32,000 bases of DNA from Acaryochloris thomasi RCC1774 (GTDB taxonomy: Bacteria; Cyanobacteriota; Cyanobacteriia; Thermosynechococcales; Thermosynechococcaceae). Below the pieces are notes generated by a model. That model was not told where the DNA came from. It worked only from the letters and a program-made list of their open reading frames with translations, and ran no database searches. The translations under genes were made by a program, and so were the position numbers. Location of the stretch: assembly GCF_003231495.1 (NCBI RefSeq), contig NZ_PQWO01000001.1, forward strand, positions 270,001-302,000. Reading direction: 5' to 3'. Positions within the stretch are counted from its first letter, which is position 1, and every line of letters begins with the position of its first letter. This document shows positions 3,720-26,630 of this stretch, piece by piece.

Positions 3720-3836
3720 TGTTTTGGCCTGCTCTGGCGTAATCAGCTTATTGTCGATTGCCTTTGCTTTAACGCGCTCAGGATCAATCCCAGCGCCATC
3801 ATCTGTAATCGAAATGATGGTCTGATTCCCTTGATA

Positions 3837-3863
3837 TAGCGGTTCCTAGGCTGCTGAGGTGCA
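3837..3863. repeat. IS630-family terminal inverted repeat (end nearest the transposase stop codon)
   Basis: TAGCGGTTCCTAGGCTGCTGAGGTGCA, against the reverse complement of the other end, TAGCGGTTCTCGACCTGATGAGGTACA. There are 9 perfect terminal bases and about 20 of 27 matches overall. Confidence 0.8.
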
Positions 3864-4418
3864 GTAACAGCAATGAGTAAACCATCCTTGAAGGTCATCT
3901 AGCGACACTTTAGAGAACGCATCTTCAATGGCTTTTGCGAGGTCAGTGTAAGTTCTGGCACCGACGGAGCGTAGGAGACTTTTGATCTTCGACCAGCAGT
4001 TTTCAATGGGTGAGAAGTCAGGTGAGTATGGCGGCAGATAAATCAGCTTAGCCCCCGCTTTCTTAATCCAGGTTGCAATGTCCTCTCCAAGATGAATAGA
4101 GCAGTTATCCATAATGACACAGGCTCCTTTCCATAGCTTGGGTATGAGTTTTTGAGAGATAAACGCCTCAAAGGTGAGTCCGTCTGTTGCCCCCAGTAGG
4201 GCAACCTGAGTGACGACGCCCTGCAAGCTAATGGCACCAATCAAAGAGACATTCTTACCGCGCCGACTGGGGCGGTCTCCCCGTGCTCTTTCTCCCTTTG
4301 TTGACCTAGCGTATAACCGAGTCATCGCCAGGTTTATGCCCGACTCGTCAATGAAAATAAGATCCTGGGCGAGAATGCCTTGGATGAGTTCCCAGTATTC
4401 TGAACGCTTACGCTGCAC
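3846..4418 (-). CDS. IS630-family transposase, DDE catalytic part (orfB). The frame is open upstream to 4463.
   Basis: Catalytic motifs are IFIDESG, VIMDNCSIH and SPDFSPIENCW, with 34 residues between the second D and the E (DD34E). The upstream in-frame extension reads HEKKSLHPTEKESERVQRKRSEYWE. Confidence 0.85.
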   Translation of the reverse strand: MQRKRSEYWELIQGILAQDLIFIDESGINLAMTRLYARSTKGERARGDRPSRRGKNVSLIGAISLQGVVTQVALLGATDGLTFEAFISQKLIPKLWKGACVIMDNCSIHLGEDIATWIKKAGAKLIYLPPYSPDFSPIENCWSKIKSLLRSVGARTYTDLAKAIEDAFSKVSLDDLQGWFTHCCYCTSAA

Positions 4419-4422
4419 CCGT

Positions 4423-4800
4423 TCACTTTCCTTTTCGGTCGGGTGTAGGCTTTTTTTTTCGTGTCAAGTTCAGCTTCCTCAACATCCGAGCCATTGTTGA
4501 GCGTCCAATCGTAACGCCAGTGGCTTGTTTCAATTTTTCCTGCAACTCGGCTAAGGTCGCATCATTATTCGCATTCACGAGTGTTGCAAGCGTCTGTAGC
4601 TGTGCATCATTGAGCTTGGTCGGGGTTTGCTGAGTCCGAACTTTAGGGGCAATACTGCCTGTCTCTCGCTCTTGTTTGAGTAATTTCTCAATGAAACTCA
4701 GAGCCACTCGAAATCGTTTTGCTAATTGACGCTGAGATATTCCACCAGCTTGATAGGTATCAAAAATCTTTTGGCGTAAGTCAAGAGAGTAGGGTCTCAT
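4423..4800 (-). CDS. IS630-family transposase, N-terminal HTH part (orfA)
   Basis: MRPYSLDLRQKIFDTYQAGGISQRQLAKRF... is a typical IS630 N-terminus. The ATG at 4800 is preferred over the TTG at 4815 given in the track. The ORF ends just after an A9 run (T9 on the plus strand, 4451-4459). Confidence 0.85.
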   Translation of the reverse strand: MRPYSLDLRQKIFDTYQAGGISQRQLAKRFRVALSFIEKLLKQERETGSIAPKVRTQQTPTKLNDAQLQTLATLVNANNDATLAELQEKLKQATGVTIGRSTMARMLRKLNLTRKKKPTPDRKGK

Positions 4801-4811
4801 TCCTATCAAAC

Positions 4812-6776
4812 TCAATAGGGGGTTAGATTCTCTATTTGTACCTCATCAGGTCGAGAACCGCTATAGAAAGCCCGAATCTTGATCAGACCTTCTGTCTCTT
4901 TATCCACGGACTGACGAACATCAGGATATTCAATCCCGTGGAAAATTGCGTTGTTGACCAAGTGCGTCAGCGGATCGTAGAGACGCTCTAGAATGCTCTT
5001 ATCGACTAAGGTATTCTGTCCTTCCAGCTCCAGGCGTGCCTGTTTGCCACACTTGAGCGAAATATCGCGGACCGCCCGAGGCAGTCGCTCAGCCACCTGC
5101 CCAAAGGGCACCATGCGGGATTTTGTTAAGCCTTCCTGAACCTGCGTCGTCACCTGCCGGAAGATGCGGGTCACCTGCTCTGTGGAATCCACCACAAATT
5201 CAATATCGGAGGCTGCCTCTCGCACACGAACAATACGCTCAATCATTTCTTGAGAGAGGGTATGGAAGCCCGTAAAGCTATCCATCTCTAGGGCATCAAA
5301 GTCGGCACCGGTTGCGTGGGTGCTGCTACCGTTATCGCTGTTGCCACCGCCGCCGCTTGTAGCTTGGGCAGCACTGAGCAAGGAACCTTCTAAAAGCGAA
5401 CGCTCATAGAGGTCCTCCATTTTTTGCCCCAGGTCGTTGAGCTGCTGCACCTGAAATAAAAGGTTATCTAAGAACTGCCGGAGTCGATCTTGACCATCTT
5501 CTAGGGTATTCCGACTGACCAGTAGTTCACCCACCAAATCGCTGAGCTTATCGAGCTGCTTAACCGGAACCTTCATGGTTTGATTGAGGTTTCCACCCAC
5601 GCGGCGGCTGGCCCGTGGTGCTGCAGCAGCGACCCGTGGAGCAGCGACAGGAGCCGCTTTAGGCTCGTCTAAGAGCTGTTCGAGATCGTCAAAGTTGGTG
5701 GTCGCAGGGACCGGTTCTTCAGGGGAAGCCTCCGCAGGGCTGGGCTGGGGAGCGTCTGCCGTCAGCAGTTCATCTAGGTTCAGGGAATCGCTCTCGTTGA
5801 CGCTGATGGCTTCAGGCTGCGGCTCTTGCAGCAGATCATCCAGCAAGAAGTTGAGATCTTTATTAGTGCTGGTATCAGCAGGTTCATCGCCGAACAAATC
5901 ACCCAGCCAGTCGTCAGCCCCATTGGCGTTACTGGTCTCTACAGGTAACAAGGCGAGCAGGGCTGCAGAAGGAGCAATCTCGGTCGCTCGGTTATTGAGA
6001 ACGAGGTCCCGTGCTGCTTTAAGTTCAGGCACGACGACCTGAGCGAGGGTCTCCCAGGATTGACCGGGGTTTGCGATCGCAACTCTATTCTTCTCCACCA
6101 GATCCGTCCATCCAGGAATCTGAAAAGCCTGTCCCAGATCTTCAAGCCCTTGGCACACATTCTGCAGCTCTTGCCGGTGTGATACCTCATCCGGCCGCTT
6201 GAACACATCCAGCATCACGCGCAGTTGCTCCAACACATCCGTCTGGAATGCCTCTAGACACACTGGATCGGGTTCGGCCCCCACCGTCACAGCCACGGGC
6301 GCAGGTGCAGCCGCCACCGGTGCACTATGGAGTAAATCACTCAAATCAACCCCGGGCCCCACCAGTTGCGCGAGATGGTGATGTAAGTCATTAAAGGCAG
6401 GCTCAACACTATTGAGCGTCTGCTCAGAAATATCTGGAGAGAGCGCAAAAGAACTCTCCAGCTCTACCGTTAAGGCACTCAGCGCATCAAATCCTTGAAA
6501 AAATAAGGACTCTAGCTTTTGGTCAATCTGAATAGGATGCTCTTTAAGGACTTTAAAATAATCCTCTAGGCGATGGGCAATGTGCTGCATACTGTGGATG
6601 CCGAGCATAGCCGCCCCACCCTTCACAGAGTGTGCCGCTCGAAAGACATCATTAAGCATCTCTGGCTCTGCAAGCACATCTTGCAGATTCAGCAAACCAT
6701 GCTCAATCGTATTGAGGTGTTCCTTGGCCTCCTCAATAAAGTAGACCATAATCCGCTGTTGTTCTGGCTGCATCAC
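4812..6776 (-). CDS. CheA N-terminal fragment (HPt domain, P/A/E-rich linker, dimerisation region, N-box of the ATPase). The last 16 codons are read-through into IS sequence.
   Basis: Has the HPt signature RAAHSVKGGAAMLG and the N-box HLVNNAIFHGIE. After ...IRAFY the sequence SGSRPDEVQIENLTPY* is encoded by the IS terminal repeat. Confidence 0.85.
   Translation of the reverse strand: MMQPEQQRIMVYFIEEAKEHLNTIEHGLLNLQDVLAEPEMLNDVFRAAHSVKGGAAMLGIHSMQHIAHRLEDYFKVLKEHPIQIDQKLESLFFQGFDALSALTVELESSFALSPDISEQTLNSVEPAFNDLHHHLAQLVGPGVDLSDLLHSAPVAAAPAPVAVTVGAEPDPVCLEAFQTDVLEQLRVMLDVFKRPDEVSHRQELQNVCQGLEDLGQAFQIPGWTDLVEKNRVAIANPGQSWETLAQVVVPELKAARDLVLNNRATEIAPSAALLALLPVETSNANGADDWLGDLFGDEPADTSTNKDLNFLLDDLLQEPQPEAISVNESDSLNLDELLTADAPQPSPAEASPEEPVPATTNFDDLEQLLDEPKAAPVAAPRVAAAAPRASRRVGGNLNQTMKVPVKQLDKLSDLVGELLVSRNTLEDGQDRLRQFLDNLLFQVQQLNDLGQKMEDLYERSLLEGSLLSAAQATSGGGGNSDNGSSTHATGADFDALEMDSFTGFHTLSQEMIERIVRVREAASDIEFVVDSTEQVTRIFRQVTTQVQEGLTKSRMVPFGQVAERLPRAVRDISLKCGKQARLELEGQNTLVDKSILERLYDPLTHLVNNAIFHGIEYPDVRQSVDKETEGLIKIRAFYSGSRPDEVQIENLTPY
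4837..4863. repeat. IS630-family terminal inverted repeat (end upstream of the transposase)
   Basis: Partner of 3837-3863. The plus strand ends ...CCTCATCAGGTCGAGAACCGCTA and is followed by TA. Confidence 0.8.
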
Positions 6777-10937: not shown

Positions 10938-12632
10938 GTGCTGTATCTAGCAGAGATTAATAAGAAAAGTGGTTTCATGGGGGCAAAAACTGAGCTTAGG
11001 TTGTTAGCCCGCAAGCAATCTGAACACAATTGGAGTCCAGTCCCTGGGGAAGAGTTGCTGCCATTTGATGCCAGCAATGACTATAACCATGGCGTTCTCG
11101 TCTTGGTAGAGGTTGACACCAATCGGAATGTCAAAAACGTTCAAGATGCAACACGACAGCTGGTGGGCATTCTTAAGAATTTTTCACGCATGCGTGAAAA
11201 ATTTAAGACCCAAGAAGAGGAAATTGAGGGTTGGAAGCAGTCTCTTATTTATCAGAGTCAAGAGCTGACTCGCCGCGAAGTAGATATGGAAGCTCGCGCT
11301 GAGGAACTGCAGCAGCTTGAGTTGGAGTCTCAAAAAATTGAACAGCAGCGCAGCGAATTTGAAGATAGCCGCGATCAGATTCTGCAGCTCAAGGAGCAGC
11401 TAGAGGGAGATCGGCAGCAGCTAGAAGAGGCATGGGGGCGTTTACAGACTGCTCAACAACAGCTCGACACCGCTCAATCTGCCTCTTTGAGTGATGAGCA
11501 AGTTCATCAAGTTGAAGGTTTACTGCAGCGCCTAGAAACTGAATTAGGAAACGGGGGAGGCGCTGATGCAGGCATGCTCGAGCAGCAGCAAACTCACTTC
11601 AATCAATACTGGCAGTCATTAGAAGAGGATCGCAGTCAGGCTCAGCAACTTGAGGATGCGTTAAATCAGAAAACTCGCGATCTAGACCAAATCTGGCAGG
11701 ACTGGCGTCAGACCCAGGGGACTTTGGAGGAAGCACAGCTAGAGCTAAAGCTACAGGAAAAGATATTGACGGTGAAGTCAGAGAGCCTCAGCTTCTTAAT
11801 CACGCAGCTGCAGGCGCAGGCAGATATTGCTCAAGCCCTCAATCAGGTCCGAGATGGCTTTACCGGTAACGCGACGGTAAATTTGCAGGCTCTCAGATCT
11901 ATGTCTGTTGAAGACCTTGAAGAAACGGTTAGCCGCCTGCAAAAAGAGCTAGACAAGCTTTCAAGCTTTGTCAATGACCAAGAAGAGGAGCTAGAACTGC
12001 AGCAACAGACGATTAACGAGCTAGAGTCTCAGGTCGAGCAGGCGAGTGAGTATGAGCGTCTGAGTCTCACCGGTGACCTCGAGCAGGAACAGCAGCAGTA
12101 TAAGCTGTTGAATGAGACTCTTGAGGGCCAAAGAAAGACGCTACAGGAACGCGAAGGCGTCCTCCATTTGCATCAAGATATTTTGCGACAACGTCAGAAG
12201 GGCAAAGACAGCCGCACGCGCCAATCTATTGAGGTGAAGCTAGAGCCGATTCTGCAGCAGCTAGAGGCTGAGCAAGAGGAGGGAGATCAGCAAGTACAAG
12301 TGCTCAAAAATGAGATTGCGCGCATTCAGGTCTCTATTCAAAATGCGGAGGGAACGCTGCAGCCGCAGATCGCTGCACAACAAAACAAGCGCAGTCAAAT
12401 TGAGGCTCAGGAGCAGGAGCTGAACGAACAGCGGGCGACGGTCGCGCAGCGCTGGGGACGGGTCAAAACCCTTGAAGATGTCTTACAGCCGATGCAGAAC
12501 GCGCTTGATGCCATGCGTGGTCAGGGAAGCGAGAATGGTTCGTCGGGTGGTCCCCCTCACGAGGCCGTTGCGGAGTTAAAGCAGGTCTTGATGGCTCTGG
12601 GTAAGGTGCCCGATCTAACACCAGTGGCCTAA
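10938..12632 (+). CDS. hmpF: HmpF-like coiled-coil protein, divergent from the chemosensory operon
   Basis: 564 aa from a GTG start. The N-terminal MLYLAEINKKSGFMG... domain is followed by about 450 aa of Q/E/L-rich heptad-type coiled coil. The divergent position next to a Pil/Hmp cluster matches the hmpF arrangement I recall from Nostoc punctiforme. Confidence 0.6.
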   Translation: MLYLAEINKKSGFMGAKTELRLLARKQSEHNWSPVPGEELLPFDASNDYNHGVLVLVEVDTNRNVKNVQDATRQLVGILKNFSRMREKFKTQEEEIEGWKQSLIYQSQELTRREVDMEARAEELQQLELESQKIEQQRSEFEDSRDQILQLKEQLEGDRQQLEEAWGRLQTAQQQLDTAQSASLSDEQVHQVEGLLQRLETELGNGGGADAGMLEQQQTHFNQYWQSLEEDRSQAQQLEDALNQKTRDLDQIWQDWRQTQGTLEEAQLELKLQEKILTVKSESLSFLITQLQAQADIAQALNQVRDGFTGNATVNLQALRSMSVEDLEETVSRLQKELDKLSSFVNDQEEELELQQQTINELESQVEQASEYERLSLTGDLEQEQQQYKLLNETLEGQRKTLQEREGVLHLHQDILRQRQKGKDSRTRQSIEVKLEPILQQLEAEQEEGDQQVQVLKNEIARIQVSIQNAEGTLQPQIAAQQNKRSQIEAQEQELNEQRATVAQRWGRVKTLEDVLQPMQNALDAMRGQGSENGSSGGPPHEAVAELKQVLMALGKVPDLTPVA

Positions 12633-14485: not shown

Positions 14486-15286
14486 ATGCAGCGTTTGCAA
14501 GGCCAAGTTGCGCTCGTCACTGGGGCAAGCTCCGGTATCGGCTCTGGTGTCGCGCTCTCCATGGCGCAGGCAGGAGCCAAGGTCGTTGTAAACTACGCCA
14601 GCAGTCCGAAGGGCGCTGAGGCTGTGGTTGATGAGGTTAAAGAACAGGGGGGAGATGCGATCGCAATTCAAGCCGATGTCAGCCAAGAAGATCAGGTCTT
14701 GAATCTATTCGCCAAAACCTATGAAGCCTTTGGCACCCTCGATGTTCTGGTCAACAACGCAGGTCTACAGAAAGATCAGCCCTTTACCGAAATGACCTTA
14801 GATGCCTGGAATAAGGTAATCAGCGTCAATCTCACCGGACAGTTCCTCTGTGCGCGGGAAGCGGCTAAGGAGTTCATTCGCCGTGGCGTTGTGCCTGAGA
14901 AATCCTGTTCAGCAGGCAAAATCATCTGCATGAGTTCAGTCCACGAGGTGATTCCCTGGGCGGGACACTGTAACTATGCCGCTTCTAAGGGCGGCGTTAT
15001 GCTGCTGATGAAAAGCATGGCCCAAGAGCTAGCGCCCCACAAAATACGAGTCAACAGCATCGGTCCAGGCGCGATCAAGACGCCCATCAATAAAGATGCC
15101 TGGGACACGCCGGAGGCTGAAGAAAGTTTGCTCAATCTGATTCCTTACAACCGTGTCGGTGAACCGACTGATATTGGTAAAGCTGCTGTTTGGCTAGCAT
15201 CCGATGAGTCCGAGTATGTTCACGGCATCACGCTCTTCGTCGATGGCGGCATGACACTTTATCCAGGGTTCGCGACGGGAGGATAG
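14486..15286 (+). CDS. Short-chain dehydrogenase/reductase, glucose 1-dehydrogenase-like
   Basis: 266 aa with TGASSGIG, NNAG, SSVHEVIPWAGHCNYAASKGG, PGAIKTPIN and a C-terminal LFVDGGMTLYPGF. By recall this is collinear with Bacillus-type glucose 1-dehydrogenase. Confidence 0.7.
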   Translation: MQRLQGQVALVTGASSGIGSGVALSMAQAGAKVVVNYASSPKGAEAVVDEVKEQGGDAIAIQADVSQEDQVLNLFAKTYEAFGTLDVLVNNAGLQKDQPFTEMTLDAWNKVISVNLTGQFLCAREAAKEFIRRGVVPEKSCSAGKIICMSSVHEVIPWAGHCNYAASKGGVMLLMKSMAQELAPHKIRVNSIGPGAIKTPINKDAWDTPEAEESLLNLIPYNRVGEPTDIGKAAVWLASDESEYVHGITLFVDGGMTLYPGFATGG

Positions 15287-15324: not shown

Positions 15325-17349
15325 ATGGTTGTTCAGTTAGGTCGAGACATTTGTGGAGATCTGCCGACTGCAGAGAAAAGAGAATGGCTGATCACCAACG
15401 GCATGGGTGGATATGGAGCAGGCACCGTCGCTGGGCTGTTGACCCGACGCTATCACGGTCTATTGGTTGCAGCCCTGAAGCCGCCGCTGGAGCGCACGTT
15501 ACTGCTGACTAAGCTCGATGAGAGCGTTGATTATCAAGGGAAAGTCTACGAACTGGCGACAAACCGCTGGGCAGACGGCACGGTTGCACCGCAGGGCTAT
15601 CAGAATATTGAGCAGTTCCAGCTAGAAGGCAGCATCCCGTTATGGAAGTATGCCTGCGGGGAGGCACTGCTAGAGAAGCGAGTCTGGATGCAGCCGGGAG
15701 CTAATACGACCTATATTCACTATTGTCTCAAACGGGCCAGTGCGCCGCTCACCCTGACGATTAAAGCGTTCGTCAACACCCGCGATCATCACCATGAAAC
15801 GCGGGGGCAAGACTGGCAGATGCAAATCGCGCCTGTGCCTCATGGCGTTCGTGTGTCTCCGTTTGAGGAGGCAACCTCTTTCTCACTGCTCTGTGATCGA
15901 GGCGAGGTGAAAGCTGAACATCTATGGCACAGCGGTTTCGATATGTCCCTAGAACGATACCGAGGGCTGGGCGATCGCGATGACAACCTTCACTCCACAA
16001 CGATTGCGATTACGCTTCAGCCTGGGGAGACACTGACGATTGTGGCCAGCACTGAGAGCGATCCGAAGTTAGATGGCAAAGTGGCTCTCTCAGAGCGTCG
16101 TGCCCACGAGCAAAGGCTGTTAGCAAGTTGGAAGGTGGTCTCTCCCACTAAAGCAACAGCCCCTTGGATTGATCAGCTCATTTTGGCTGCGGATCAGTTT
16201 GTTGTGGATCGTCCATTGCCAGAAGCACCAGAGGGTAAAACCATCATTGCCGGATATCCCTGGTTTGGCGATTGGGGACGCGACACGATGATTAGCCTAT
16301 CGGGGCTGACGCTGACGACGGGGCGCGCTGAGATTGCTCGCACCATTATTCACACCTTTGCCCAATACCTCGATCAGGGAATGCTGCCCAATGTTTTCCC
16401 TGAAGTGGGAGAGGAACCCGGTTACAACACCGTCGATGCGATTCTTTGGTACTTCGAGGCGATCCGTGAATACTATGCGGCAACCAGAGATGATGCGCTA
16501 CTCGAAGAAATCTATCCAGCCTTAACAGAGGTGATTGCTTGGCATCAAAAGGGGACTCGCTACGCCATTCACTTGGATGACGATGGCTTGATCTATGCCG
16601 GGGAAGCAGGCGTTCAGCTCACCTGGATGGATGCCAAGGTTGGCGATTGGGTGGTGACGCCTCGCGTGGGTAAGCCAATTGAGATTAATGCTCTTTGGTA
16701 CAGCGCTCTGCGAATGATGGCGCAGTTGGCGCAACGGTTGGGTAAGCCCCACCAATCGTTTCAGGATATGGCTGAGCAGACCCGATCTGGCTTTCAGCGG
16801 TTTTGGTCGGCTGATCTGGGCTACTGCTATGACGTGTTGGATGGACCCGAGGGTAATGATGAGGCCCTACGTCCGAATCAGATTTTTGCGGTTTCTTTGC
16901 CAATGGCGTCGGGGCAAATTGGGAGTACTCCGCTACTCTCTCCTGATCAACAGCGGGCGGTGGTGGATATTTGCGGGCGGTCACTGCTGACTTCTGTGGG
17001 GTTGAGATCGCTTTCTCCAGCTCACCCAGACTATACAGGGCATTACGGAGGGGATCAGCTCAGTCGCGATGGTGTATATCACCAGGGCACGACGTGGGGC
17101 TGGCTGTTGGGGCCTTATGTACAGGCTCATATACAGGTATACAAAGATGCAGAGCAGGCGCGATCGCTCTTAGAGCCAATGGCGGATCATCTATCGGCTC
17201 ACGGTCTCGGAAGCATTAGCGAAATCTTTGATGGAGATGCGCCGTTTGTTCCCCGAGGCTGTTTTGCTCAGGCTTGGTCAGTGGCGGAGACTTTGCGAGC
17301 GTGGGTGGCTGTGGAGCGTTTTGCGAATGGAGCAGAGCAAGACAGATGA
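15325..17349 (+). CDS. Glycogen debranching enzyme, archaeal type (amylo-alpha-1,6-glucosidase family)
   Basis: 674 aa. The N-terminal motif is TNGMGGYGAGTVAGLLTRRYHGLL and the catalytic-domain motif is AGYPWFGDWGRDTMISL. Confidence 0.8.
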   Translation: MVVQLGRDICGDLPTAEKREWLITNGMGGYGAGTVAGLLTRRYHGLLVAALKPPLERTLLLTKLDESVDYQGKVYELATNRWADGTVAPQGYQNIEQFQLEGSIPLWKYACGEALLEKRVWMQPGANTTYIHYCLKRASAPLTLTIKAFVNTRDHHHETRGQDWQMQIAPVPHGVRVSPFEEATSFSLLCDRGEVKAEHLWHSGFDMSLERYRGLGDRDDNLHSTTIAITLQPGETLTIVASTESDPKLDGKVALSERRAHEQRLLASWKVVSPTKATAPWIDQLILAADQFVVDRPLPEAPEGKTIIAGYPWFGDWGRDTMISLSGLTLTTGRAEIARTIIHTFAQYLDQGMLPNVFPEVGEEPGYNTVDAILWYFEAIREYYAATRDDALLEEIYPALTEVIAWHQKGTRYAIHLDDDGLIYAGEAGVQLTWMDAKVGDWVVTPRVGKPIEINALWYSALRMMAQLAQRLGKPHQSFQDMAEQTRSGFQRFWSADLGYCYDVLDGPEGNDEALRPNQIFAVSLPMASGQIGSTPLLSPDQQRAVVDICGRSLLTSVGLRSLSPAHPDYTGHYGGDQLSRDGVYHQGTTWGWLLGPYVQAHIQVYKDAEQARSLLEPMADHLSAHGLGSISEIFDGDAPFVPRGCFAQAWSVAETLRAWVAVERFANGAEQDR

Positions 17350-17477: not shown

Positions 17478-20141
17478 ATGACCACTCCCGAAGAACAACG
17501 TCTGACAGAAAACCGCGATCGCATCTCCTATTGGAAGCGCTGGGGCCCCTATCTCAGCGAACGCCAGTGGGGCACGGTGCGCGAAGACTACAGCGCCTAC
17601 GGCGAAGCCTGGGATTATTTCTCTCACGATCAGGCCCGCTCAAGAGCCTATCGCTGGGGCGAGGATGGCTTGCTGGGCATCTCTGACAATCATCAACGCC
17701 TCTGTTTTGCCTTAGCGCTGTGGAATGGGGAAGACCCCATCTTAAAAGAGCGTCTTTATGGCCTAACCGGCAGCCAAGGCAACCACGGCGAAGATGTTAA
17801 AGAATACTACTTTTACCTCGACAGCACGCCGACCCATTCCTACATGAAGGGGTTGTACAAGTATCCGCAGGCCGCATTTCCCTATCAATGGCTTGAGGAG
17901 GAGAACCGCCAGCGCGGACGCGATGGGATGGAGTTTGAGCTGTTGGATACAGGGATATTCAACGAAGATCGCTACTTTGATGTGATGGTGGAGTACGCAA
18001 AAGCATCCTCTGAAGATATTTTGATGCGAATTAGCGTTACCAATCGCGGCCCGGAGACGAAAACGCTGCACCTGTTGCCGACGCTGTGGTTCCGCAATAC
18101 TTGGGCCTGGGACGAAACAACCTCGGAACCGTTTTTGAAAGCTAAGGATCCGCAGACGGTTCAGGTGTCTCACCCTGATTTAGGCGAACGCTGGTGGACC
18201 TGCTCAAAAGCAGCCGATCTACTGTTTACAAATAATGAGACCAATTTTGAGCGTCTATTCCAGACGGAGAATGCCAGCCCCTATGTGAAAGATGGCATTC
18301 ATAACTACGTTGTTCAGGGGCAAAAGGAAGCCGTTAATCCTGAGCGGGTGGGGACGAAGGCTGCGGCGTATTATCCGCTGACGATTGGGGCTGGGGAGAC
18401 TCAAGTGGTAGAGCTGCGGTTGAGTGACCGGGATGATAGTGGAGGAAGTGATTTTGAGGCGGTGTTTTGCGATCGCATCTCTGAAGCCGACGAGTTCTAC
18501 GCCACCGTCACCCCAAGCTGCACGAAAGATCTCTGCAATATCCAGCGCCAAGCCTTTGCAGGACTGCTGTGGACGAAGCAGTACTACCATTTCATTGTCG
18601 AGGACTGGCTCCAGGGTGACCCCAACAACCCTGAGCCGCCGGAAGGTCACCAAAAAGGACGCAACAGTCAGTGGAAACATCTCCACGCCGACGACATTAT
18701 TTCGATGCCTGACAAGTGGGAGTACCCTTGGTTTGCCGCCTGGGACTCAGCCTTCCATGCCATTCCTTTAGCTTTAGTAGATGCTGAGTTTGCCAAAAAG
18801 CAGCTCGATCTGATGACGCGGGAATGGTATATGCATCCCAACGGTCAGCTTCCTGCCTATGAATGGGCCTTCAGCGACGTGAATCCGCCGGTTCATGCCT
18901 GGGCCACTTGGCGCATATACAAGATTGAACAGAAACGAAAAGGGAAAGGCGATCGCAAGTTCCTAGAGCGCGTCTTTCAGAAACTATTGCTTAACTTCAC
19001 CTGGTGGGTGAACCGCAAGGATGTCGAAGGCAACAACGTCTTTGAGGGCGGCTTTCTAGGACTCGATAATATTGGCGTCTTCGACCGCAGTTCCCCGTTG
19101 CCAACCGGCGGATTTATCGAGCAGGCCGACGGCACGAGCTGGATGGGGATGTACTGCTTGAATATGCTGGCGATCGCGCTAGAGCTTGCCGTAGAGAATT
19201 CGGTCTACGAGGACATGGCGACCAAATTCTTTGAGCATTTCTTGTACATTGCCGAGGCCATGAACCACGTTGGTGGCGACGGCACCCAACTCTGGGATGA
19301 AGAAGATGGCTTTTTTTATGATGTTTTGCACCTACCCAATAACGACCGGCTTCCTCTCAAGGTGCGATCGATGGTGGGCCTGATTCCGCTGTTTGCAGTG
19401 ACGGTTCTAGAACCCGAAATGTTGGAGAAGGTGCCTGCGTTCAAGAAGCGACTGGAATGGTTTATTCAGCACCGGCCCGATCTGAAAACGAACGTCGCCT
19501 GCATGGAAACTCAGGGCATGGAGGCACGTAGACTGCTGGCGCTGTGCTACCTCACGCCCAACAAAGTGGTTTCAGAAGATCGCTTCCGCCGCATTTTGGA
19601 GAAGCTTTTGGACGAGACCGAGTTCTTCGGTGACTACGGCATTCGGGCACTGTCTCGCCACCACGCTGAACATCCCTACATTTTTGAGGTGGATGGTGAA
19701 GAGCATCGAGTGGATTACGAACCGGCAGAATCTAGTAGCGGCTTGTTTGGCGGCAATTCGAATTGGCGCGGCCCCGTGTGGTTCCCGGTCAACTATTTGC
19801 TGATTGAATCGCTGCAAAAGTTTCATCACTACGTTGGCGATGACTTTAAGGTGGAATGTCCTACAGGGTCCGGTCACATGATGACGCTCTGGGAGGTTGC
19901 GGCTGAAATTTCCCGGCGATTGATGCGGATTTTTACCCAAGATAAAGCCGGTCAGCGTCCGGTGTATGGCGCGATTGATACCTTTCAAAACAATCTCGAT
20001 TGGAAAGACTATATCCAGTTCCATGAATATTTCCACGGCGATAATGGAGCGGGCATTGGGGCAAGTCATCAAACGGGCTGGACTGGATTGATTGCTAAGT
20101 TGATTCAGCAAAACGGAGAAACGATGGGTGAGGATCTTTAA
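17478..20141 (+). CDS. GH63 / MGH1-like glycoside hydrolase (glucosidase)
   Basis: 887 aa with [50 protein letters not shown], typical of the large bacterial and fungal MGH1-like GH63 proteins. Confidence 0.75.
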
Positions 20142-20500: not shown

Positions 20501-21334
20501 ATGTTCCAAATCTTTCGAGACCATTGGCCCAACTATCTAATTGAAGCCTGGGGACTAGGCACCTTTATGGTGTCAGCCGGTGTTTTTGCAACGCTCTTAT
20601 ACGCAGAAAATTCGCCCTTGTCCTTTCCCCATCCGCTGTTGCGGGATCTGGTGATGGGGTTGGGTATGGGAGGAACCGCGATCGCAATTATCTATTCCCC
20701 CTGGGGCAAGCGCTCTGGCGCACACATCAATCCCGCCGTGACCCTAACCTTCTTTCATCTCAATAAAATCGCAGCCTGGGATGCATTTTTCTATATCCTA
20801 TTTCAGTTCATCGGAGCATTAGCCGGTGTTTTGCTCGTCGCGGTTGCTCTCGGCTCTCCATTCCAGGAGGCTCCCGTGAATTACGTAGTGACCGTACCGG
20901 GGCAGTGGGGATGGCCTGCAGCCCTAGTGGCAGAGTTTACGATTTCTTTTGTCCTGATGACGATGGTGCTCTGGGTCAGCAACACACCCCAGATTGCTAG
21001 GCTAACGGGACTTTTCTCAGGGATACTTGTAACGCTTTACGTTGTCTTCTCTGCGCCTATTTCTGGCTTTGGCATGAACCCAGCTCGCACCTTTGGCTCA
21101 GCTTTACCCGCTCAGACCTGGACGGCGTTTTGGATTTACTACTTTGCACCGCCGCTAGCAATGCTGTTGGCGGCAGACCTGTATCAGCGGATTACGAAGA
21201 TGAGATCGCACTCCATCTGCAGCAAACTTTGTCCCAACGGTGAAACGCCTTGTATCAGCCCGATCTGCTGTAGTGCATGTGATCAGGTTATCCGGCCCTG
21301 GCGGCAGAAAGAGAAAGTTGATGCTATCTCCTGA
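20501..21334 (+). CDS. MIP/aquaporin-family channel with a Cys-rich C-terminal extension
   Basis: 277 aa with two NPA boxes (SGAHINPAVT, GFGMNPARTF) and six hydrophobic segments. The tail reads SICSKLCPNGETPCISPICCSACDQ. Confidence 0.85.
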   Translation: MFQIFRDHWPNYLIEAWGLGTFMVSAGVFATLLYAENSPLSFPHPLLRDLVMGLGMGGTAIAIIYSPWGKRSGAHINPAVTLTFFHLNKIAAWDAFFYILFQFIGALAGVLLVAVALGSPFQEAPVNYVVTVPGQWGWPAALVAEFTISFVLMTMVLWVSNTPQIARLTGLFSGILVTLYVVFSAPISGFGMNPARTFGSALPAQTWTAFWIYYFAPPLAMLLAADLYQRITKMRSHSICSKLCPNGETPCISPICCSACDQVIRPWRQKEKVDAIS

Positions 21335-21376: not shown

Positions 21377-21447
21377 AGGACAAAACGTTGTATATAAGAC
21401 GTTAGAGCCATCATCTGTGTATATGTGTATACGTGAGGAAACGACGA

Positions 21448-22764
21448 ATGCTCCAAGATCTCAAACAAATTCAGAATCCGATTGCTCGCAGTGCGACAGC
21501 AGGTATTACCGTATCGTCCTTTATCCTGATTGCCGGTGTATTGGGACTTGGATTTTTTAAGCTTAAAGAGACCCACAAAATAGCGGTCTTAGGAGCAGCG
21601 GCAGGAGGAGGAGTGGGTGCGATCGCAGGTGCCGTCGTTGCCCCCACAAAAACAAAGTCGAAAACATCCCGACCACAGCCAAACGTTGCAGAGGACGGCT
21701 GGAAAGATTGGCGGCCCTTCGTCGTCCGTCGCAAAGTCAAAGAAAGCGAAGAGATCACTTCGTTCTATCTGGAACCTCAAGATGGTGGCCCCCTCCCAGG
21801 CTTCAAACCCGGACAGTTCCTAACGATCCAGCTCGACATCCCCAGACAGCCTCGGCCTGTGATTCGAACTTATTCACTCTCAGACTATGCCCAGACACCC
21901 AAATATTACCGACTCTCGATTAAGCGAGAACCAGCCCCCAAAGATCTAGACGTGCCACCCGGCTTGGCCTCTAACTTCATGCATGATCAGGTCCATGAAG
22001 GAACCGTTCTACCTGCCAAGCCCCCCAATGGGAAATTCTTCCTTGACCTCAACAAAAACGCACCCGCCGTCTTAATCAGCAATGGCGTTGGCATCACGCC
22101 CATGATCAGCATGGCAAAGGCCTGCAAACTTCAGGGCGGAGATCGGCCCGTCTGGTTTTTACACGGCGCGAGAAACGGTCAGTTCCATGCCCTACGCGAA
22201 GAGGTAAATAATATTGGCGTCAACGTTCACTATCGCTACAGTCGCCCTCGCCCTGAAGATGAAGGCCAATATCAAAGCACGGGCTATATCGATGCAGACC
22301 TGATTAAAACGGAGGTCTCACCGGCTCTCCAAAACGCATCTTTAGCCACGGCAGAATACTTTTTGTGTGGTTCACCACCCTTTATGGATGGCATTCGAGC
22401 GGGGCTACGAGACCTAGGCGTACCGGATGAAAACGTTTACTTTGAATCCTTTAGCAAACCCAAAGCGAAGGTCGAGACCTCAGAGGAGCCAGAGGGTGCA
22501 GTAGCAACGGCAGAAGTTGTATTCGCAACCTCAGGTAAAACCCTGACCTGGAAACCCAGCGACGGCACCCTGCTGGAGTTCGCGGAAGCCAACAACATCG
22601 ATCCGCCCTATAGCTGCCGCGCGGGCATCTGCCTCACCTGCATGTGCTCAATCCAGGAAGGGGAGGTGGCCTACGACGAAGAGCCGACCGGAACGCCAGA
22701 CGAAGGCTCGGTGCTGATCTGTATTTCTAAGCCAGGAACGGAGCGGGTCGTACTAGACCTTTAA
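21448..22764 (+). CDS. Membrane-anchored FNR-like flavin reductase with C-terminal plant-type 2Fe-2S ferredoxin domain (PDR/VanB-type architecture)
   Basis: RTYSLSD flavin-binding motif, SNGVGITPM nucleotide-binding motif, and C-terminal CRAGICLTCMC...LIC cluster ligands. The N-terminus has a hydrophobic helix (ITVSSFILIAGVLGLGFF) and a G/A-rich segment. The ATG at 21448 has GAGGA 6 nt upstream. The track's GTG at 21433 is the alternative start. Confidence 0.75.
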   Translation: MLQDLKQIQNPIARSATAGITVSSFILIAGVLGLGFFKLKETHKIAVLGAAAGGGVGAIAGAVVAPTKTKSKTSRPQPNVAEDGWKDWRPFVVRRKVKESEEITSFYLEPQDGGPLPGFKPGQFLTIQLDIPRQPRPVIRTYSLSDYAQTPKYYRLSIKREPAPKDLDVPPGLASNFMHDQVHEGTVLPAKPPNGKFFLDLNKNAPAVLISNGVGITPMISMAKACKLQGGDRPVWFLHGARNGQFHALREEVNNIGVNVHYRYSRPRPEDEGQYQSTGYIDADLIKTEVSPALQNASLATAEYFLCGSPPFMDGIRAGLRDLGVPDENVYFESFSKPKAKVETSEEPEGAVATAEVVFATSGKTLTWKPSDGTLLEFAEANNIDPPYSCRAGICLTCMCSIQEGEVAYDEEPTGTPDEGSVLICISKPGTERVVLDL

Positions 22765-22795
22765 GTTCCTACCTATTGCAACTGAGGAGAACTGG

Positions 22796-24331
22796 ATGAG
22801 TGAGCATTACGACATCATCATCGTCGGGACTGGTGCAGGGGGCGGAACCCTCGCCCATCGCCTAGCACCCAGCGGTAAGAAAATACTCGTCCTCGAACGG
22901 GGTGAATTTTTGCCCCGCGAAAAAGCAAACTGGGATGCGGTGGAGGTGTTCCAAAAGGAGCGCTATCACACCGATGAGATCTGGCAGGACAAAGATCGCA
23001 GAGTGCTGCACCCCGGTACGGGCTATAACGTCGGTGGCAATACCAAGGTCTACGGCGGTGCCCTGTTTCGCCTGCGGGAGCGCGACTTTGAGCAAATTAC
23101 TCACCACGGCGGTATTTCGCCTGAGTGGCCGCTGAAGTATCGAGATTTTGAACCCTATTATGATCAGGCTGAACAGCTCTATCAAGTGCATGGGCAGCAG
23201 GGACTCGACCCCACTGAACCGGCTCGGAAAGCGGACTATACTTTCCCTCCCATCAGCCATGAACCTCGCATTCAAGACATTCACTATCGGCTGGCGGATA
23301 AGGGACTAAACCCCTTTTATTTACCACTGGCGATTCGGCTCAATGAGGTCAATCAGCTCATGAGCGACTGTATTCGGTGTAATACCTGTGATGGCTTCCC
23401 CTGCATGGTTAAAGGGAAATCTGATTCTGATATCACCTGTATTCAGCCTGCGATGAATGCTGATAATCTGACGCTGCTCACAGGGGCGATGGTGCGGCGG
23501 CTTAAGACGAGTGCCTCAGGTAAAGAGGTTACGGGTGTCGAGGTTGAAATTGAGGGGGAACTAGAAACGTTCTCGGCCAATATTGTGGTGGTGGCTTGCG
23601 GAGCAATCAATTCGGCAGTTTTGTTGTTGCGATCGCAAACCGACCAACATCCCAACGGCCTCGCCAACGGCTCCGATCAGGTGGGGCGCAACTTCATGAA
23701 GCACCAGAACGGGGCGATTGTGGGCATCAGCCGCAAGCCCAATCCGTCAGTCTTCCAAAAAACGCTGGCGATTAACGACTACTACTGGGGCGAAGAGGGC
23801 TTTGACTACCCAATGGGCCACGTGCAGCTTTTGGGCAAAGTCAACAAAGACATGATGGTCTTAGATGCGCCGAAGTTGTCTCCAGGGATGGCGCTAGATG
23901 AGGCAGCAAAGCACTCTGTTGATTGGTGGTTGACCGCAGAAGACTTGCCGGAAGCAACCAATCGAGTTCGACTCCAGGATGACAAGATTACGCTGGAGTA
24001 CACCGATAACAATACAGAGGCATTTAATCGTCTTTCTAACCGCTGGACGCATGTACTGAAATCGATTGAATGTGGCGACACGATCATGCCCTGTTCACTT
24101 TATTTCCGGAAGCGTATTCCTTTGCAAGGGGTGGCGCACCAGGTTGGAACCTGTCGATTTGGCACAGATCCTAAGACTTCTGTTTTGGATCTCAACTGTC
24201 GTGCTCATGAAGTAGACAACCTCTATGTTGTTGATGGCAGCTTTTTCCCGTCTAGCGGAGCGGTCAATCCTTCCCTAACGATTATGGCGAATGCAATGCG
24301 GGTTGGCGATCACCTACTGAAAAAACTTTAG
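22796..24331 (+). CDS. GMC-family FAD-dependent oxidoreductase with an internal Cys4 motif
   Basis: 511 aa with the N-terminal dinucleotide fold DIIIVGTGAGGGTLA, the C-terminal GMC signature GTCRFG...NLYVVDGSFFPSSGAVNPSLTIMA, and CIRCNTCDGFPC at aa 192-203. GAGGAG precedes the ATG. Confidence 0.8.
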   Translation: MSEHYDIIIVGTGAGGGTLAHRLAPSGKKILVLERGEFLPREKANWDAVEVFQKERYHTDEIWQDKDRRVLHPGTGYNVGGNTKVYGGALFRLRERDFEQITHHGGISPEWPLKYRDFEPYYDQAEQLYQVHGQQGLDPTEPARKADYTFPPISHEPRIQDIHYRLADKGLNPFYLPLAIRLNEVNQLMSDCIRCNTCDGFPCMVKGKSDSDITCIQPAMNADNLTLLTGAMVRRLKTSASGKEVTGVEVEIEGELETFSANIVVVACGAINSAVLLLRSQTDQHPNGLANGSDQVGRNFMKHQNGAIVGISRKPNPSVFQKTLAINDYYWGEEGFDYPMGHVQLLGKVNKDMMVLDAPKLSPGMALDEAAKHSVDWWLTAEDLPEATNRVRLQDDKITLEYTDNNTEAFNRLSNRWTHVLKSIECGDTIMPCSLYFRKRIPLQGVAHQVGTCRFGTDPKTSVLDLNCRAHEVDNLYVVDGSFFPSSGAVNPSLTIMANAMRVGDHLLKKL

Positions 24332-24427
24332 ATTCGCTGCTGATACGATTTTGTTTTCAACCGATAGAGATCAGTCGCATATGCATCAACTAAAATTGTG
24401 ATATATATTTCCCACGGTGTAACTGCC

Positions 24428-24661
24428 ATGACCCTACAGGAACTACAGCAAGCAGTCTACCAATTGTCATCTGAAGAGCAGTTTGTACTTCTAGAAAGTC
24501 TAGTTCAGGCCCTGAAAGCTAAGCGACAAGACCCCGTTGACCGTCAGGCTCTAGTTAGTCAACTACGAGGCTGTCTCAAGCAACCCGGTCAGCCTGCCCC
24601 CTCAGATGCCGATCTCGAATCAATGCGGGAAGAACGCCTTGTGGAGAAATATCTTGCGTGA
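24428..24661 (+). CDS. Type II antitoxin (small helical addiction-module component, VapB-like role)
   Basis: MTLQELQQAVYQLSSEEQFVLLESLVQALKAK... Its stop overlaps the toxin start by 4 bp (GTGA). The ATG at 24428 is preferred over the ATG at 24398 used in the track. Confidence 0.65.
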   Translation: MTLQELQQAVYQLSSEEQFVLLESLVQALKAKRQDPVDRQALVSQLRGCLKQPGQPAPSDADLESMREERLVEKYLA

Positions 24662-25101
24662 GGGTGCTGCTGGACACAAACATCATTCTTGACTTCTTTC
24701 TAGAGCGAGAGCCATTTTTTCAGAGTGCGTCAAAGCTGTTTGATGCGATCGCAGATACAAAAGTAGAAGGCTTTGTTACAGCATCCAGTATCACTGACAT
24801 CTTCTACATTTGCAGACGTCAATCTCAGAGTCGTGAAGAAGCAAGGCAAATCTTGATCACAACCCTTGCCCTTCTGAGCATTTGTCCTGTCGATGGCTTC
24901 ATACTCGAAACAGCCCTCAAATCTGGCTTGGCTGACTTTGAGGATGCCGTACAAATCGCCTGCGCTGAAACACAGAATTTAGAGGCGATCATTACCCGCA
25001 ATCCCCAAGACTTCAAAACAGCTCACATCCCTGTGCTATCTGCCGATCAGATAGTAAAACAGCTAGAGAGTAGACTTCAATCGTTTGGTGAACAAGAGTA
25101 A
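24658..25101 (+). CDS. vapC: PIN-domain toxin (VapC family ribonuclease)
   Basis: 147 aa. The PIN acidic residues sit in context: VLLDTNIILDF, LERE, SITDIFY, DFEDAVQ. Confidence 0.8.
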   Translation: MRVLLDTNIILDFFLEREPFFQSASKLFDAIADTKVEGFVTASSITDIFYICRRQSQSREEARQILITTLALLSICPVDGFILETALKSGLADFEDAVQIACAETQNLEAIITRNPQDFKTAHIPVLSADQIVKQLESRLQSFGEQE

Positions 25102-25559: not shown

Positions 25560-26630
25560 ATGAGACCCAAATCGTTTCCTTTGATAGTCCTGCTCAGCCT
25601 GCTGGGAACGATCGCAACTGGCCTTCCAGCAACTTCTCAAATCCCAAAACCTCCAGCTCGACCCAAAGTTGTTCAGGTCGCTCAGAAGATATCTCAAGCC
25701 GTTGATGTTACATCCATTGGTATGACGGTTTCGGATATGGATCAGTCCATTGCGTTCTATCGAGATGTTTTGTCTTTCAAGTCCATCTCTGATGTTGAGG
25801 TCTTTGGCACCGAATACGAGAGACTTCAAGGTGTATTTGGCCTGCGGATGCGGGTGGTCAAAATGCAGCTTGGGCAAGAAACGATTGAACTGACGGAATA
25901 TCTGACGCCTAAGGGTAAACCAATCCCGGTTGATTCTCGCAGCAATGATTTATGGTTCCAGCATATTGCGATCGTGGTGCGCGATATGGATAAGGCCTAT
26001 CAGCACCTGCGCCAATACAAAGTGCAGCATGTTTCGACAGAGCCTCAGAAGCTACCCGAAACGATTCCGGCAGCAGCGGGGATTGAGGCATTTTATTTTC
26101 AAGATCCTGACGGTCACAATTTAGAGGTGATTTTCTTCCCAGTGGATAAAGGCGATCCGCGCTGGCAGAAGCCGACGGATGAGCTGTTTTTAGGAATTGA
26201 CCACACTGCGATCGCAACTTCCAGTACCCCTGCCAGCCTCAAGTTTTACCAAGATCTGCTGGGTCTTGAGCTAGCCGGTCAAAGCGAGAACTTCGGCACC
26301 GAGCAAGAGCACCTGAATAACGTGTTTGGAGCCAGACTTTTAATTAGCGGCTTAAAAGCCTCTAGCGGACCCGGCATCGAGTTTCTCAATTATTTAGCGC
26401 CCACCGGAGGCCGCCCCAAACCCCAGGATTCTCGCGCAAACGATCTCTTGCATTGGCAAACCACTCTTGAAGTGAATAATGTTGATGCTGTTGCCAACCA
26501 GCTTCGTACTGGGGGTGCCACCTTTGTGTCTCCAGGGGTCGTTGAATTACCCAATCGCTCCTTGGGCTTTAGTAAGGGATTTCTAGTTCAGGATCCAGAT
26601 GGGCATGTGTTACGCATTGTTCAACCTTAG
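25560..26630 (+). CDS. Secreted tandem VOC-domain protein (glyoxalase/bleomycin-resistance/extradiol dioxygenase superfamily)
   Basis: 356 aa with a signal-peptide-like N-terminus (MRPKSFPLIVLLSLLGTIATGLPA). It has two repeats of the VOC pattern (SIGMTVSDMDQSIAFYRDVLSF, FQHIAIVVRDMD, IDHTAIATSSTPASLKFYQDLLGLE, DPDGH twice). Confidence 0.75.
   Translation: MRPKSFPLIVLLSLLGTIATGLPATSQIPKPPARPKVVQVAQKISQAVDVTSIGMTVSDMDQSIAFYRDVLSFKSISDVEVFGTEYERLQGVFGLRMRVVKMQLGQETIELTEYLTPKGKPIPVDSRSNDLWFQHIAIVVRDMDKAYQHLRQYKVQHVSTEPQKLPETIPAAAGIEAFYFQDPDGHNLEVIFFPVDKGDPRWQKPTDELFLGIDHTAIATSSTPASLKFYQDLLGLELAGQSENFGTEQEHLNNVFGARLLISGLKASSGPGIEFLNYLAPTGGRPKPQDSRANDLLHWQTTLEVNNVDAVANQLRTGGATFVSPGVVELPNRSLGFSKGFLVQDPDGHVLRIVQP

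Follow-up and report, generated by a model that had tools for sequence, protein, structure and literature searches.

Two genes lie in tandem on the forward strand of a 32,000-nucleotide (nt) stretch of the genome of the cyanobacterium Acaryochloris thomasi RCC1774 (contig NZ_PQWO01000001.1, positions 270,001 to 302,000; this whole stretch is hereafter the window, and coordinates are positions within it). The first encodes a predicted membrane-anchored iron-sulfur (Fe-S) flavoprotein reductase and the second a GMC flavoprotein with a CxxCxxCxxxxC motif, to which we give the working names RED and GMC. Do the two form a self-contained, dedicated electron-transfer pair, as was proposed when the locus was first read without database searches (the sequence-only reading), and if not, what might such a reductase be doing beside such an enzyme? 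We find that RED and GMC are not co-conserved: GMC sits in a gene island that spans many bacterial phyla, normally without RED, and RED is an optional cyanobacterial add-on, filling a slot beside GMC that is taken in other lineages by NDH-2-type NADH dehydrogenases.

RED and GMC are not co-conserved

Gene neighbourhoods were rebuilt from genome and metagenome loci by our own open reading frame (ORF) calling, tblastn and clustering. This was done for 80 RED loci from named cyanobacterial genomes, with stretches of up to 10 kb on each side of RED, and for 80 metagenomic GMC loci found by a scan with a GMC alignment (A3), most of them from soil and outside the cyanobacteria. RED was present at none of the 80 metagenomic GMC loci and at 1 of about 14 cyanobacterial loci whose GMC carries all four motif cysteines (Cys4), and a GMC gene lay near RED in 11 of the 80 RED loci. 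A sample of 250 genomes of the phylum contained RED in 4 and a GMC-family gene in 37, with the two adjacent in one; nor was RED found in the host genomes of the closest GMC orthologues (68-70% identity). Neighbourhood co-occurrence was the observation that the sequence-only reading had itself named as able to overturn its self-contained pair, and on these counts the pair is not an obligate one.

Nor is RED a random neighbour of GMC. The RED tree follows cyanobacterial taxonomy, and GMC-adjacent RED genes stand at at least five places on it, of which well-supported branches force at least three; the lineages concerned are the window's own clade, Nodosilinea, Pseudanabaena, Leptolyngbya/Scytolyngbya, Chroococcidiopsis and Calothrix/Heteroscytonema. 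At least one gene of the island described below was found in 45 of 78 RED loci. A GMC-family gene was present elsewhere in 35 of the 40 RED genomes that lack one near RED, as against 37/250 (15%) in the phylum sample, a co-occurrence that is suggestive only, because related genomes are not independent. In 20 RED genomes this separate GMC gene has its customary SDR/MIP/GH63 surroundings; 12 of these proteins are Cys4 and 8 belong to a sister clade (Cys3) in which the third Cys is replaced by Phe (CIRCDTFDGYPC).

Among the loci examined, RED is so far confined to cyanobacteria, and its neighbours are varied. Within 6 kb of RED, the 80 loci yielded genes for DM13 (22, directly upstream), SDR (18), MsrA (11), MIP (11), FMN reductase (8) and DUF4079 (7) proteins, and no Rieske or di-iron oxygenase appeared among the recurrent neighbour clusters; the sole neighbour with a cytoplasmic metal centre is GMC, by virtue of its predicted Fe-S cluster (11/80 loci). 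A cytochrome P450 was considered as a regular partner of RED and rejected, with a P450 gene near RED in just 1 of the 80 loci. The DUF4079 membrane protein adjoins RED in L058, L060, L072, L074, L077 and L078 (Pseudanabaena, Chroococcidiopsidaceae and Microcoleus), often with a response regulator and a kinase.

GMC lies in a widespread gene island

In the window, the island runs in the order SDR, GDE, GH63, MIP, RED, GMC, toxin-antitoxin insertion, VOC and P450, all on the + strand. It opens with the SDR gene (14486..15286; Pfam adh_short_C2, E = 6e-67). This is followed by GDE (15325..17349), an archaeal-type glycogen debranching enzyme (Pfam GDE_C, E = 1e-124, and GDE_N; NCBIfam TIGR01561, 442 bits, over the cut-off) that is recurrent in the island elsewhere, and by an 887-residue GH63/MGH1-like glycoside hydrolase (17478..20141; Pfam MGH1-like_GH, E = 5e-27, and Glyco_hydro_63). 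Next comes the MIP-family channel (20501..21334; Pfam MIP, E = 7e-31), the conserved upstream neighbour of GMC, with RED inserted between the two in this genome. Beyond GMC, an antitoxin-like ORF and a PIN toxin (24398..25101; Pfam PIN_3, E = 4e-25) likely represent an insertion ahead of VOC; at this position other cyanobacteria carry a DUF5996-like gene of about 290-300 codons, of which neither a copy nor a remnant was found in the window or the rest of the genome with the query used. VOC (25560..26630), an exported two-domain VOC/glyoxalase-fold protein (Pfam Glyoxalase, twice), is the conserved downstream partner of GMC, and a cytochrome P450 (26716..28077; Pfam p450, E = 7e-93) forms a genome-specific tail.

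The 80 metagenomic GMC loci present much the same picture. VOC was found in 42 of them, usually directly downstream of GMC, and MIP in 30, usually directly upstream, so that the link between GMC and the adjacent channel drawn in the sequence-only reading is borne out well beyond this genome. These were followed by SDR (24), GH63 (23), GDE (16), NDH-2 (15; Pyr_redox_2 plus NDH2_C), DM13 (9) and FMN reductase (7), and the same neighbour set surrounds cyanobacterial GMC genes. From the metagenomic counts, the conserved core of the island is MIP-GMC-VOC together with glucan- or glucoside-cleaving enzymes; gene order inside it varies widely. Since both VOC and DM13 carry signal peptides of the Sec type, without a twin arginine, products of the island act in different compartments.

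A counterpart has been described in Synechococcus elongatus PCC 7942, where Synpcc7942_1571-1575 encode a MIP, a GMC protein, an annotated glucose 1-dehydrogenase (Synpcc7942_1573, the counterpart of the SDR in the window), a debranching enzyme and 'malQ', the glucosidase of the set. In transcript data these five genes are reported to be up-regulated in subjective night and are tied to glycogen breakdown, and the cluster lists no RED (PMC11889915). Our literature search found neither the RED nor the GMC family covered beyond transcript data, and nothing on GMC with DM13 or on a MIP-GMC-VOC island as a general stress regulon.

RED occupies a slot taken elsewhere by NDH-2

The gene order DM13-NDH2-GMC-VOC (loci L172 and L208) mirrors the cyanobacterial order DM13-RED-GMC-DUF5996L-VOC (L062). 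At L089, the closest RED-less cyanobacterial locus examined, an NDH-2-like and a DoxX-type gene stand directly upstream of GMC, and tblastn placed an NDH-2-like gene upstream of GMC in L089-L091. RED thus fills the slot beside GMC that NDH-2-type enzymes take in other lineages, and this position suggests that it may have the same role. Both are membrane-associated, NAD(P)H-oxidising flavoproteins, RED by prediction, but NDH-2 has an unrelated fold with two dinucleotide-binding domains, lacks an Fe-S cluster and reduces quinone directly. At L089:5807-7829, where the ORFs were checked, the NDH-2-like gene is followed by one for a 171-residue DoxX/MauE-like membrane protein.

Longer relatives of GMC include NDH-2::GMC fusion proteins of about 1,000 residues, in both domain orders. 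One fusion lineage is conserved, with members 65-84% identical, and includes a Gemmataceae metagenome-assembled genome at NCBI; the reverse order was seen in two records. All of these fusions keep Cys4 and both nucleotide-binding sites of NDH-2. Further GMC-type fusions (P0405, P0406, P0408, P0410, P0412, P0416 and P0418) join the protein to glucose-6-phosphate dehydrogenase (in both orders), a GH15 glucoamylase, an MFS sugar transporter or a VOC domain, and two of those with GH15 carry part of cytochrome bd subunit I. They are mostly single ENA records, some of which may be gene-calling artefacts.

GMC resembles the catalytic subunits of FAD-dependent sugar dehydrogenases

GMC (22796..24331, +) has the Pfam domains GMC_oxred_N and GMC_oxred_C. 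Its N-terminus opens straight into the conserved GxGxxG site for flavin adenine dinucleotide (FAD; residues 11-16), and no signal peptide was found on the protein. In PDB sequence searches it matched FAD-dependent glucose dehydrogenase (FAD-GDH) of Burkholderia (6A2U/8HDD, E = 9e-34) and fructose dehydrogenase (FDH) of Gluconobacter (7W2J, E = 1e-25). A single-sequence AlphaFold model was discarded (pLDDT 33) in favour of an AlphaFold 2 model built from a 58-sequence alignment (pLDDT 93.9). The top nine Foldseek matches to this model were all FDH or FAD-GDH chains (TM-score 0.82-0.84, E = 1e-38 to 1e-43), with other GMC enzymes clearly lower (TM-score <=0.70, E ~1e-28). The best sequence match, the Burkholderia cepacia FAD-GDH alpha subunit (6A2U/8GRJ/8HDD; TM-score 0.82-0.84), is about 23% identical to GMC and shares with it the GMC fold, a Cys-rich surface loop and the catalytic His/Asn pair, represented in GMC by H448 and N491, which are invariant or nearly so and align with the FAD-GDH residues. 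The best structural match was the large subunit of Gluconobacter japonicus FDH (7W2J/8JEJ; E = 4e-43, TM-score 0.84), a catalytic subunit with FAD and a 3Fe-4S cluster that gives electrons to a membrane-bound partner. Taken together, sequence and predicted structure identify GMC as a stand-alone, putatively cytoplasmic relative of these catalytic subunits. The family is large, with about 1,500 cluster representatives at E <= 1e-30 in an exhaustive search and thousands more at 90% clustering.

To our knowledge, Fe-S dehydrogenases of the GMC type are known only as periplasmic three-subunit complexes, prized for direct-electron-transfer biosensors, and our literature search returned no cytoplasmic Fe-S GMC enzyme and no Fe-S in glucoside 3-dehydrogenase. 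Unlike FAD-GDH, the window GMC has no genes for a hitchhiker gamma subunit or a multihaem cytochrome c nearby, and neither belongs to the neighbour clusters that recur at 200 related loci. Whereas FAD-GDH is periplasmic, GMC lacks an export route; export by riding on VOC or DM13, in the manner of a Tat hitchhiker, was considered and rejected on the Sec-type signals of both. The FDH large subunit pairs with a tri-haem cytochrome c subunit at the periplasmic face, whereas the candidate partners of GMC are NAD(P)H flavoproteins of the cytoplasmic face (RED and NDH-2). GMC is thus predicted to work like an FAD-GDH/FDH catalytic subunit but is not a strict member of such complexes, because it is without a hitchhiker, a cytochrome c subunit, periplasmic export and, as judged from the residues described next, covalent FAD.

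The Cys4 motif CIRCNTCDGFPC (23369..23404, +; residues 192-203) comprises C192, C195, C198 and C203 and is a predicted Fe-S site. It lies where the sequence-only reading had placed it, and its conservation among orthologues, on which that reading leaned, is strong: CxxCxxCxxxxC is present in 119 of 120 GMC homologues of 68-91% identity, in 72 of the 80 metagenomic relatives and in most 50%-cluster representatives, and all four cysteines are invariant in alignment A3. Kept across these sets, the motif is under selection and is not there by chance. A further GMC clade, of about 50% identity, has none of the motif cysteines. It takes in the second GMC gene of this genome, a 48% identical paralogue on contig 9 (L121:5163-11278, minus strand), whose operon encodes DM13, a YHS-domain protein, YjeF_N (NAD(P)HX epimerase), GMC, a membrane protein and a 655-residue fusion of a Rieske 2Fe-2S domain with a thiamine-diphosphate enzyme.

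The sequence-only reading had cited as precedent the Cys-rich regions that hold an Fe-S relay in the catalytic subunits of some FAD-dependent dehydrogenases. The precedent is real: in FAD-GDH, Cys212, Cys218 and Cys222 ligate a surface 3Fe-4S cluster through which electrons pass from FAD to the cytochrome subunit, Cys213 is disulfide-bonded to the hitchhiker subunit, and FAD is attached covalently to His105 (PMC6719666, PMC9727119). In the PDB sequence search, CIRCNTCDGFPC aligned on the CCGNNNC..MPIC loop that carries these cysteines. The HMMER alignment set C192 and C198 on Cys212 and Cys218, with C203 one column off Cys222 beside a two-residue gap, and showed C195 in the position of Asn215, Ile193 in that of Cys213 and Val85 in that of His105. 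Judged from this alignment, GMC keeps the three cluster ligands and loses the disulfide cysteine and the covalent-FAD histidine, and its fourth cysteine gives a ferredoxin-like CxxCxxC. Because the middle Cys of this CxxCxxC stands where FAD-GDH has Asn, the cluster in GMC is probably 4Fe-4S, by analogy with 3Fe and 4Fe ferredoxins.

RED is a predicted membrane-anchored flavo-iron-sulfur reductase

RED (21448..22764, +) combines a putative two-helix membrane anchor with an FAD/NAD(P)H module and a 2Fe-2S ferredoxin domain. As listed, the ORF opens at GTG 21433; because homologues begin at ATG 21448 in a 22-member alignment (A1) and GAGGA lies just 5' of this ATG, ATG 21448 is probably the true start, giving a protein of 438 residues, and GTG 21433 is probably not. 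Pfam places FAD_binding_6 at residues 97-202, NAD_binding_1 at 214-322 and Fer2 at 369-434 (E = 2e-12 for Fer2). The RTYSLS (RxYS), NGVGITPM and CGSP motifs and the four ferredoxin cysteines are invariant across the 22 family members; the latter, C395-x4-C400-x2-C403 ... C430, define the 2Fe-2S ligand region (22615..22722, +). Pfam and the alignment thus confirm the PDR-type domain order, flavin and nucleotide motifs and C-terminal 2Fe-2S domain that the sequence-only reading had recognised.

Two other parts of its description of RED stand in modified form. It had seen one transmembrane helix followed by a G/A-rich segment; the N-terminus is indeed hydrophobic, but its first 80 residues hold two hydropathy peaks in 22/22 members (Kyte-Doolittle 19-residue means 1.3-2.5), the second corresponding to a G/A-rich, Gly-zipper-like helix. 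Kept family-wide, these two hydrophobic segments (21493..21648, +) imply that the anchor is a helical hairpin, which would leave the flavin and Fe-S domains on the cytoplasmic side. No conserved His able to ligate haem was found in the anchor helices across the 22-member alignment. Likewise, the assignment to the PDR/VanB type holds for domain order, but the flavin module is closest to that of flavohaemoglobin (3OZU, E = 3.5e-53, against E = 5.7e-20 for PDR, 2PIA).

The likeness to flavohaemoglobin extends over residues 83-341, the best match to the Hmp reductase module (3OZU, 1CQX, 1GVH), and includes the GWKxWR linker motif; unlike Hmp, RED has a membrane hairpin in place of the globin domain and an extra C-terminal 2Fe-2S domain. 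The NCBIfam Hmp model was the best match but reached 249 bits against a cut-off of 432, and RED reached no named NCBIfam equivalog (PaaE, GbcB, BenC, Hcr and others), all scores lying far under the cut-offs. With PDR, PaaE, VanB, GbcB and Hcr, it shares an FNR-like module followed by a plant-type 2Fe-2S domain with the C-x4-C-x2-C...C pattern (2PIA, E = 6e-20; PaaE model, 117 bits; GbcB model, 109 bits). Unlike these relatives, it has an anchor of about 80 residues with two transmembrane segments and no oxygenase partner among its recurrent neighbours. Matches were also obtained to NqrF (FNR module, E ~1e-15) and to the PDR-like reductase domain of the self-sufficient P450 6LAA (E = 4e-22).

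The RED-GMC junction

RED stops at 22764 and GMC starts with the ATG at 22796, leaving a spacer of 31 nt (22765..22795, +) with GAGGAG at 22784-22789, just as the sequence-only reading had described it. A scan of this gap revealed no terminator-like or promoter-like site. Because the gap holds a Shine-Dalgarno sequence and no terminator, RED and GMC are probably co-transcribed. Upstream of RED, a GGACA-N17-CGTT element (21378-21403, about 45 nt 5' of the RED start) resembles a promoter of the extracytoplasmic function (ECF) type; it was not seen upstream of RED in other genomes. When a promoter motif shared between RED and the island genes was sought, upstream similarity proved to be confined to close Nostoc relatives, and it yielded no motif that could be extended to the window.

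Other features of the window

Ahead of the island, a CheA-like histidine kinase gene (2631-6776, minus strand) is apparently split by an IS630-family transposase, whose ORFs (DDE_3 and HTH_Tnp_IS630, 3846-4815) lie inside a chemotaxis-like cluster with MCP, CheW and CheY. Between this cluster and the island is a 564-residue ORF with no Pfam match (10938-12632).

Discussion

How, then, might RED and GMC be related? We lean towards RED being a membrane module of a sugar-oxidation island, NAD(P)H-linked and facultative, a reading to which we give somewhat better than even chances. At night or under stress, GDE and GH63 would draw on glycogen or a compatible solute to release glucose or a glucoside, and GMC would oxidise a hydroxyl of the sugar, with single electrons passing from FAD to its surface Fe-S cluster. 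Held by its two-helix anchor, RED would take electrons from NAD(P)H, supplied for example by the SDR, and pass them through its FAD and 2Fe-2S centres. It would serve close to the membrane as an electron-entry or docking module, and may trade electrons with the cluster of GMC in one direction or the other; reductases of its class normally send electrons away from NAD(P)H, and GMC homologues send them away from the substrate. GMC would not need RED, because most GMC orthologues come without one.

Several points weigh against this reading. The cluster type, the substrate, the acceptor and the direction of flow are inferences alike. NDH-2 is absent from 65 of the 80 metagenomic islands, and mostly no NAD(P)H flavoprotein gene stands beside GMC. 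The well-supported NDH-2::GMC fusions represent one lineage (65-84% identical), and those of reverse order are single ENA records that could be gene-calling errors; fusion and adjacency in any case demonstrate a functional link and not direct electron exchange. Because two of the four sampled RED genomes carry only Cys-less GMC, RED must have other partners, and no recognised quinone site was found in RED. Finally, the genome-level co-occurrence of RED and GMC may reflect merely the large genomes of related terrestrial or benthic cyanobacteria.

A bolder account, which we put well short of even but still regard as a real possibility, is that Cys4 GMC proteins and an NAD(P)H flavoprotein together make up a so far undescribed class of two-component flavo-iron-sulfur sugar dehydrogenase in the cytoplasm, with NDH-2 as the flavoprotein in most phyla and RED in cyanobacteria. 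In some planctomycete-like lineages the flavoprotein and GMC would be joined in one protein, RED would have arisen in cyanobacteria as a non-orthologous substitute for NDH-2, and electrons would hop between the surface cluster of GMC (4Fe-4S, not 3Fe-4S) and the FAD or 2Fe-2S of the partner at the membrane. If this were true, then at night or under stress the oxidation of stored sugar would be tied directly to the pool of quinone or NAD(P).

The dedicated pair of the sequence-only reading appears unlikely in the light of the neighbourhood counts. In that scheme, GMC oxidises an alcohol, polyol or sugar delivered by the MIP, and electrons run from Cys4 to the 2Fe-2S and then the FAD of RED, and on to NAD(P)+ or quinone. 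The 31-nt gap with its Shine-Dalgarno sequence agrees with it, as does the homology of the Fe-S loop to that of an enzyme whose cluster hands electrons on to another subunit (PMC6719666). RED and GMC stand next to each other repeatedly, in Nodosilinea, Leptolyngbya, Scytolyngbya, Pseudanabaena, Chroococcidiopsis and Calothrix/Heteroscytonema, and the NDH-2::GMC fusions show this type of GMC teaming with an NAD(P)H flavoprotein. Yet no RED was found at 80/80 metagenomic and 13 of about 14 cyanobacterial Cys4 GMC loci, GMC has a separate context of its own in 20 RED genomes, and DM13, SDR or MsrA stand beside RED more often than GMC does. The direction of flow poses a further difficulty: reductases of the RED class usually run from NAD(P)H to 2Fe-2S, and for most alcohol oxidations the reverse path to NAD(P)+ would have to run uphill.

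We also think it improbable that RED is unrelated to GMC and acts as a general NAD(P)H electron donor to other membrane or envelope proteins of a stress island, in the manner of Fre/MsrQ or NqrF arrangements, its position beside GMC reflecting shared regulation only. The candidate partners would be the DUF4079 four-histidine membrane protein, exported DM13, an MsrA repair system and, here, the P450. The presence of DM13 directly upstream of RED in 22 of the 80 loci, and of MsrA, FMN reductase and DUF4079 in smaller numbers, is in line with this idea, as are the NqrF-like FNR module, the match to the P450 6LAA reductase domain together with a P450 gene 4 kb downstream in the window, and the two RED genomes with only Cys-less GMC genes. 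Several points count against it, however. A P450 lies near RED at a single one of the 80 loci; the anchor helices of RED lack a conserved haem-binding His; MsrA works by thiol chemistry; and the Sec signal peptides of DM13 and VOC place them apart from the catalytic part of RED, which is predicted to be cytoplasmic. In addition, GMC islands regularly open with DM13 (9/80 loci), so that its adjacency to RED may merely mirror island order. That RED and GMC are neighbours through a recent, neutral and functionally meaningless rearrangement is highly improbable: the PIN toxin pair between GMC and VOC is mobile DNA and island gene order is highly variable, but the same RED-GMC order occurs in at least five cyanobacterial lineages set apart on the RED tree, genome-level co-occurrence is strong, and the two genes lie close together, with a Shine-Dalgarno sequence in the gap.

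Returning to the favoured reading of RED as a facultative module of the island, its interest lies first in GMC, a very large and biochemically unstudied family that here takes the form of a stand-alone, predicted cytoplasmic version with the full CxxCxxC...C, in an island that is night-induced in a model cyanobacterium. Its acceptor, once identified, would explain how stored sugar is oxidised outside the standard pathways in cyanobacteria and many soil bacteria. The presence of RED here, and of NDH-2 elsewhere, in the adjoining slot offers a concrete and testable candidate for that acceptor, and gives the membrane-anchored RED family, seen only in cyanobacteria among the loci examined, its first functional context.

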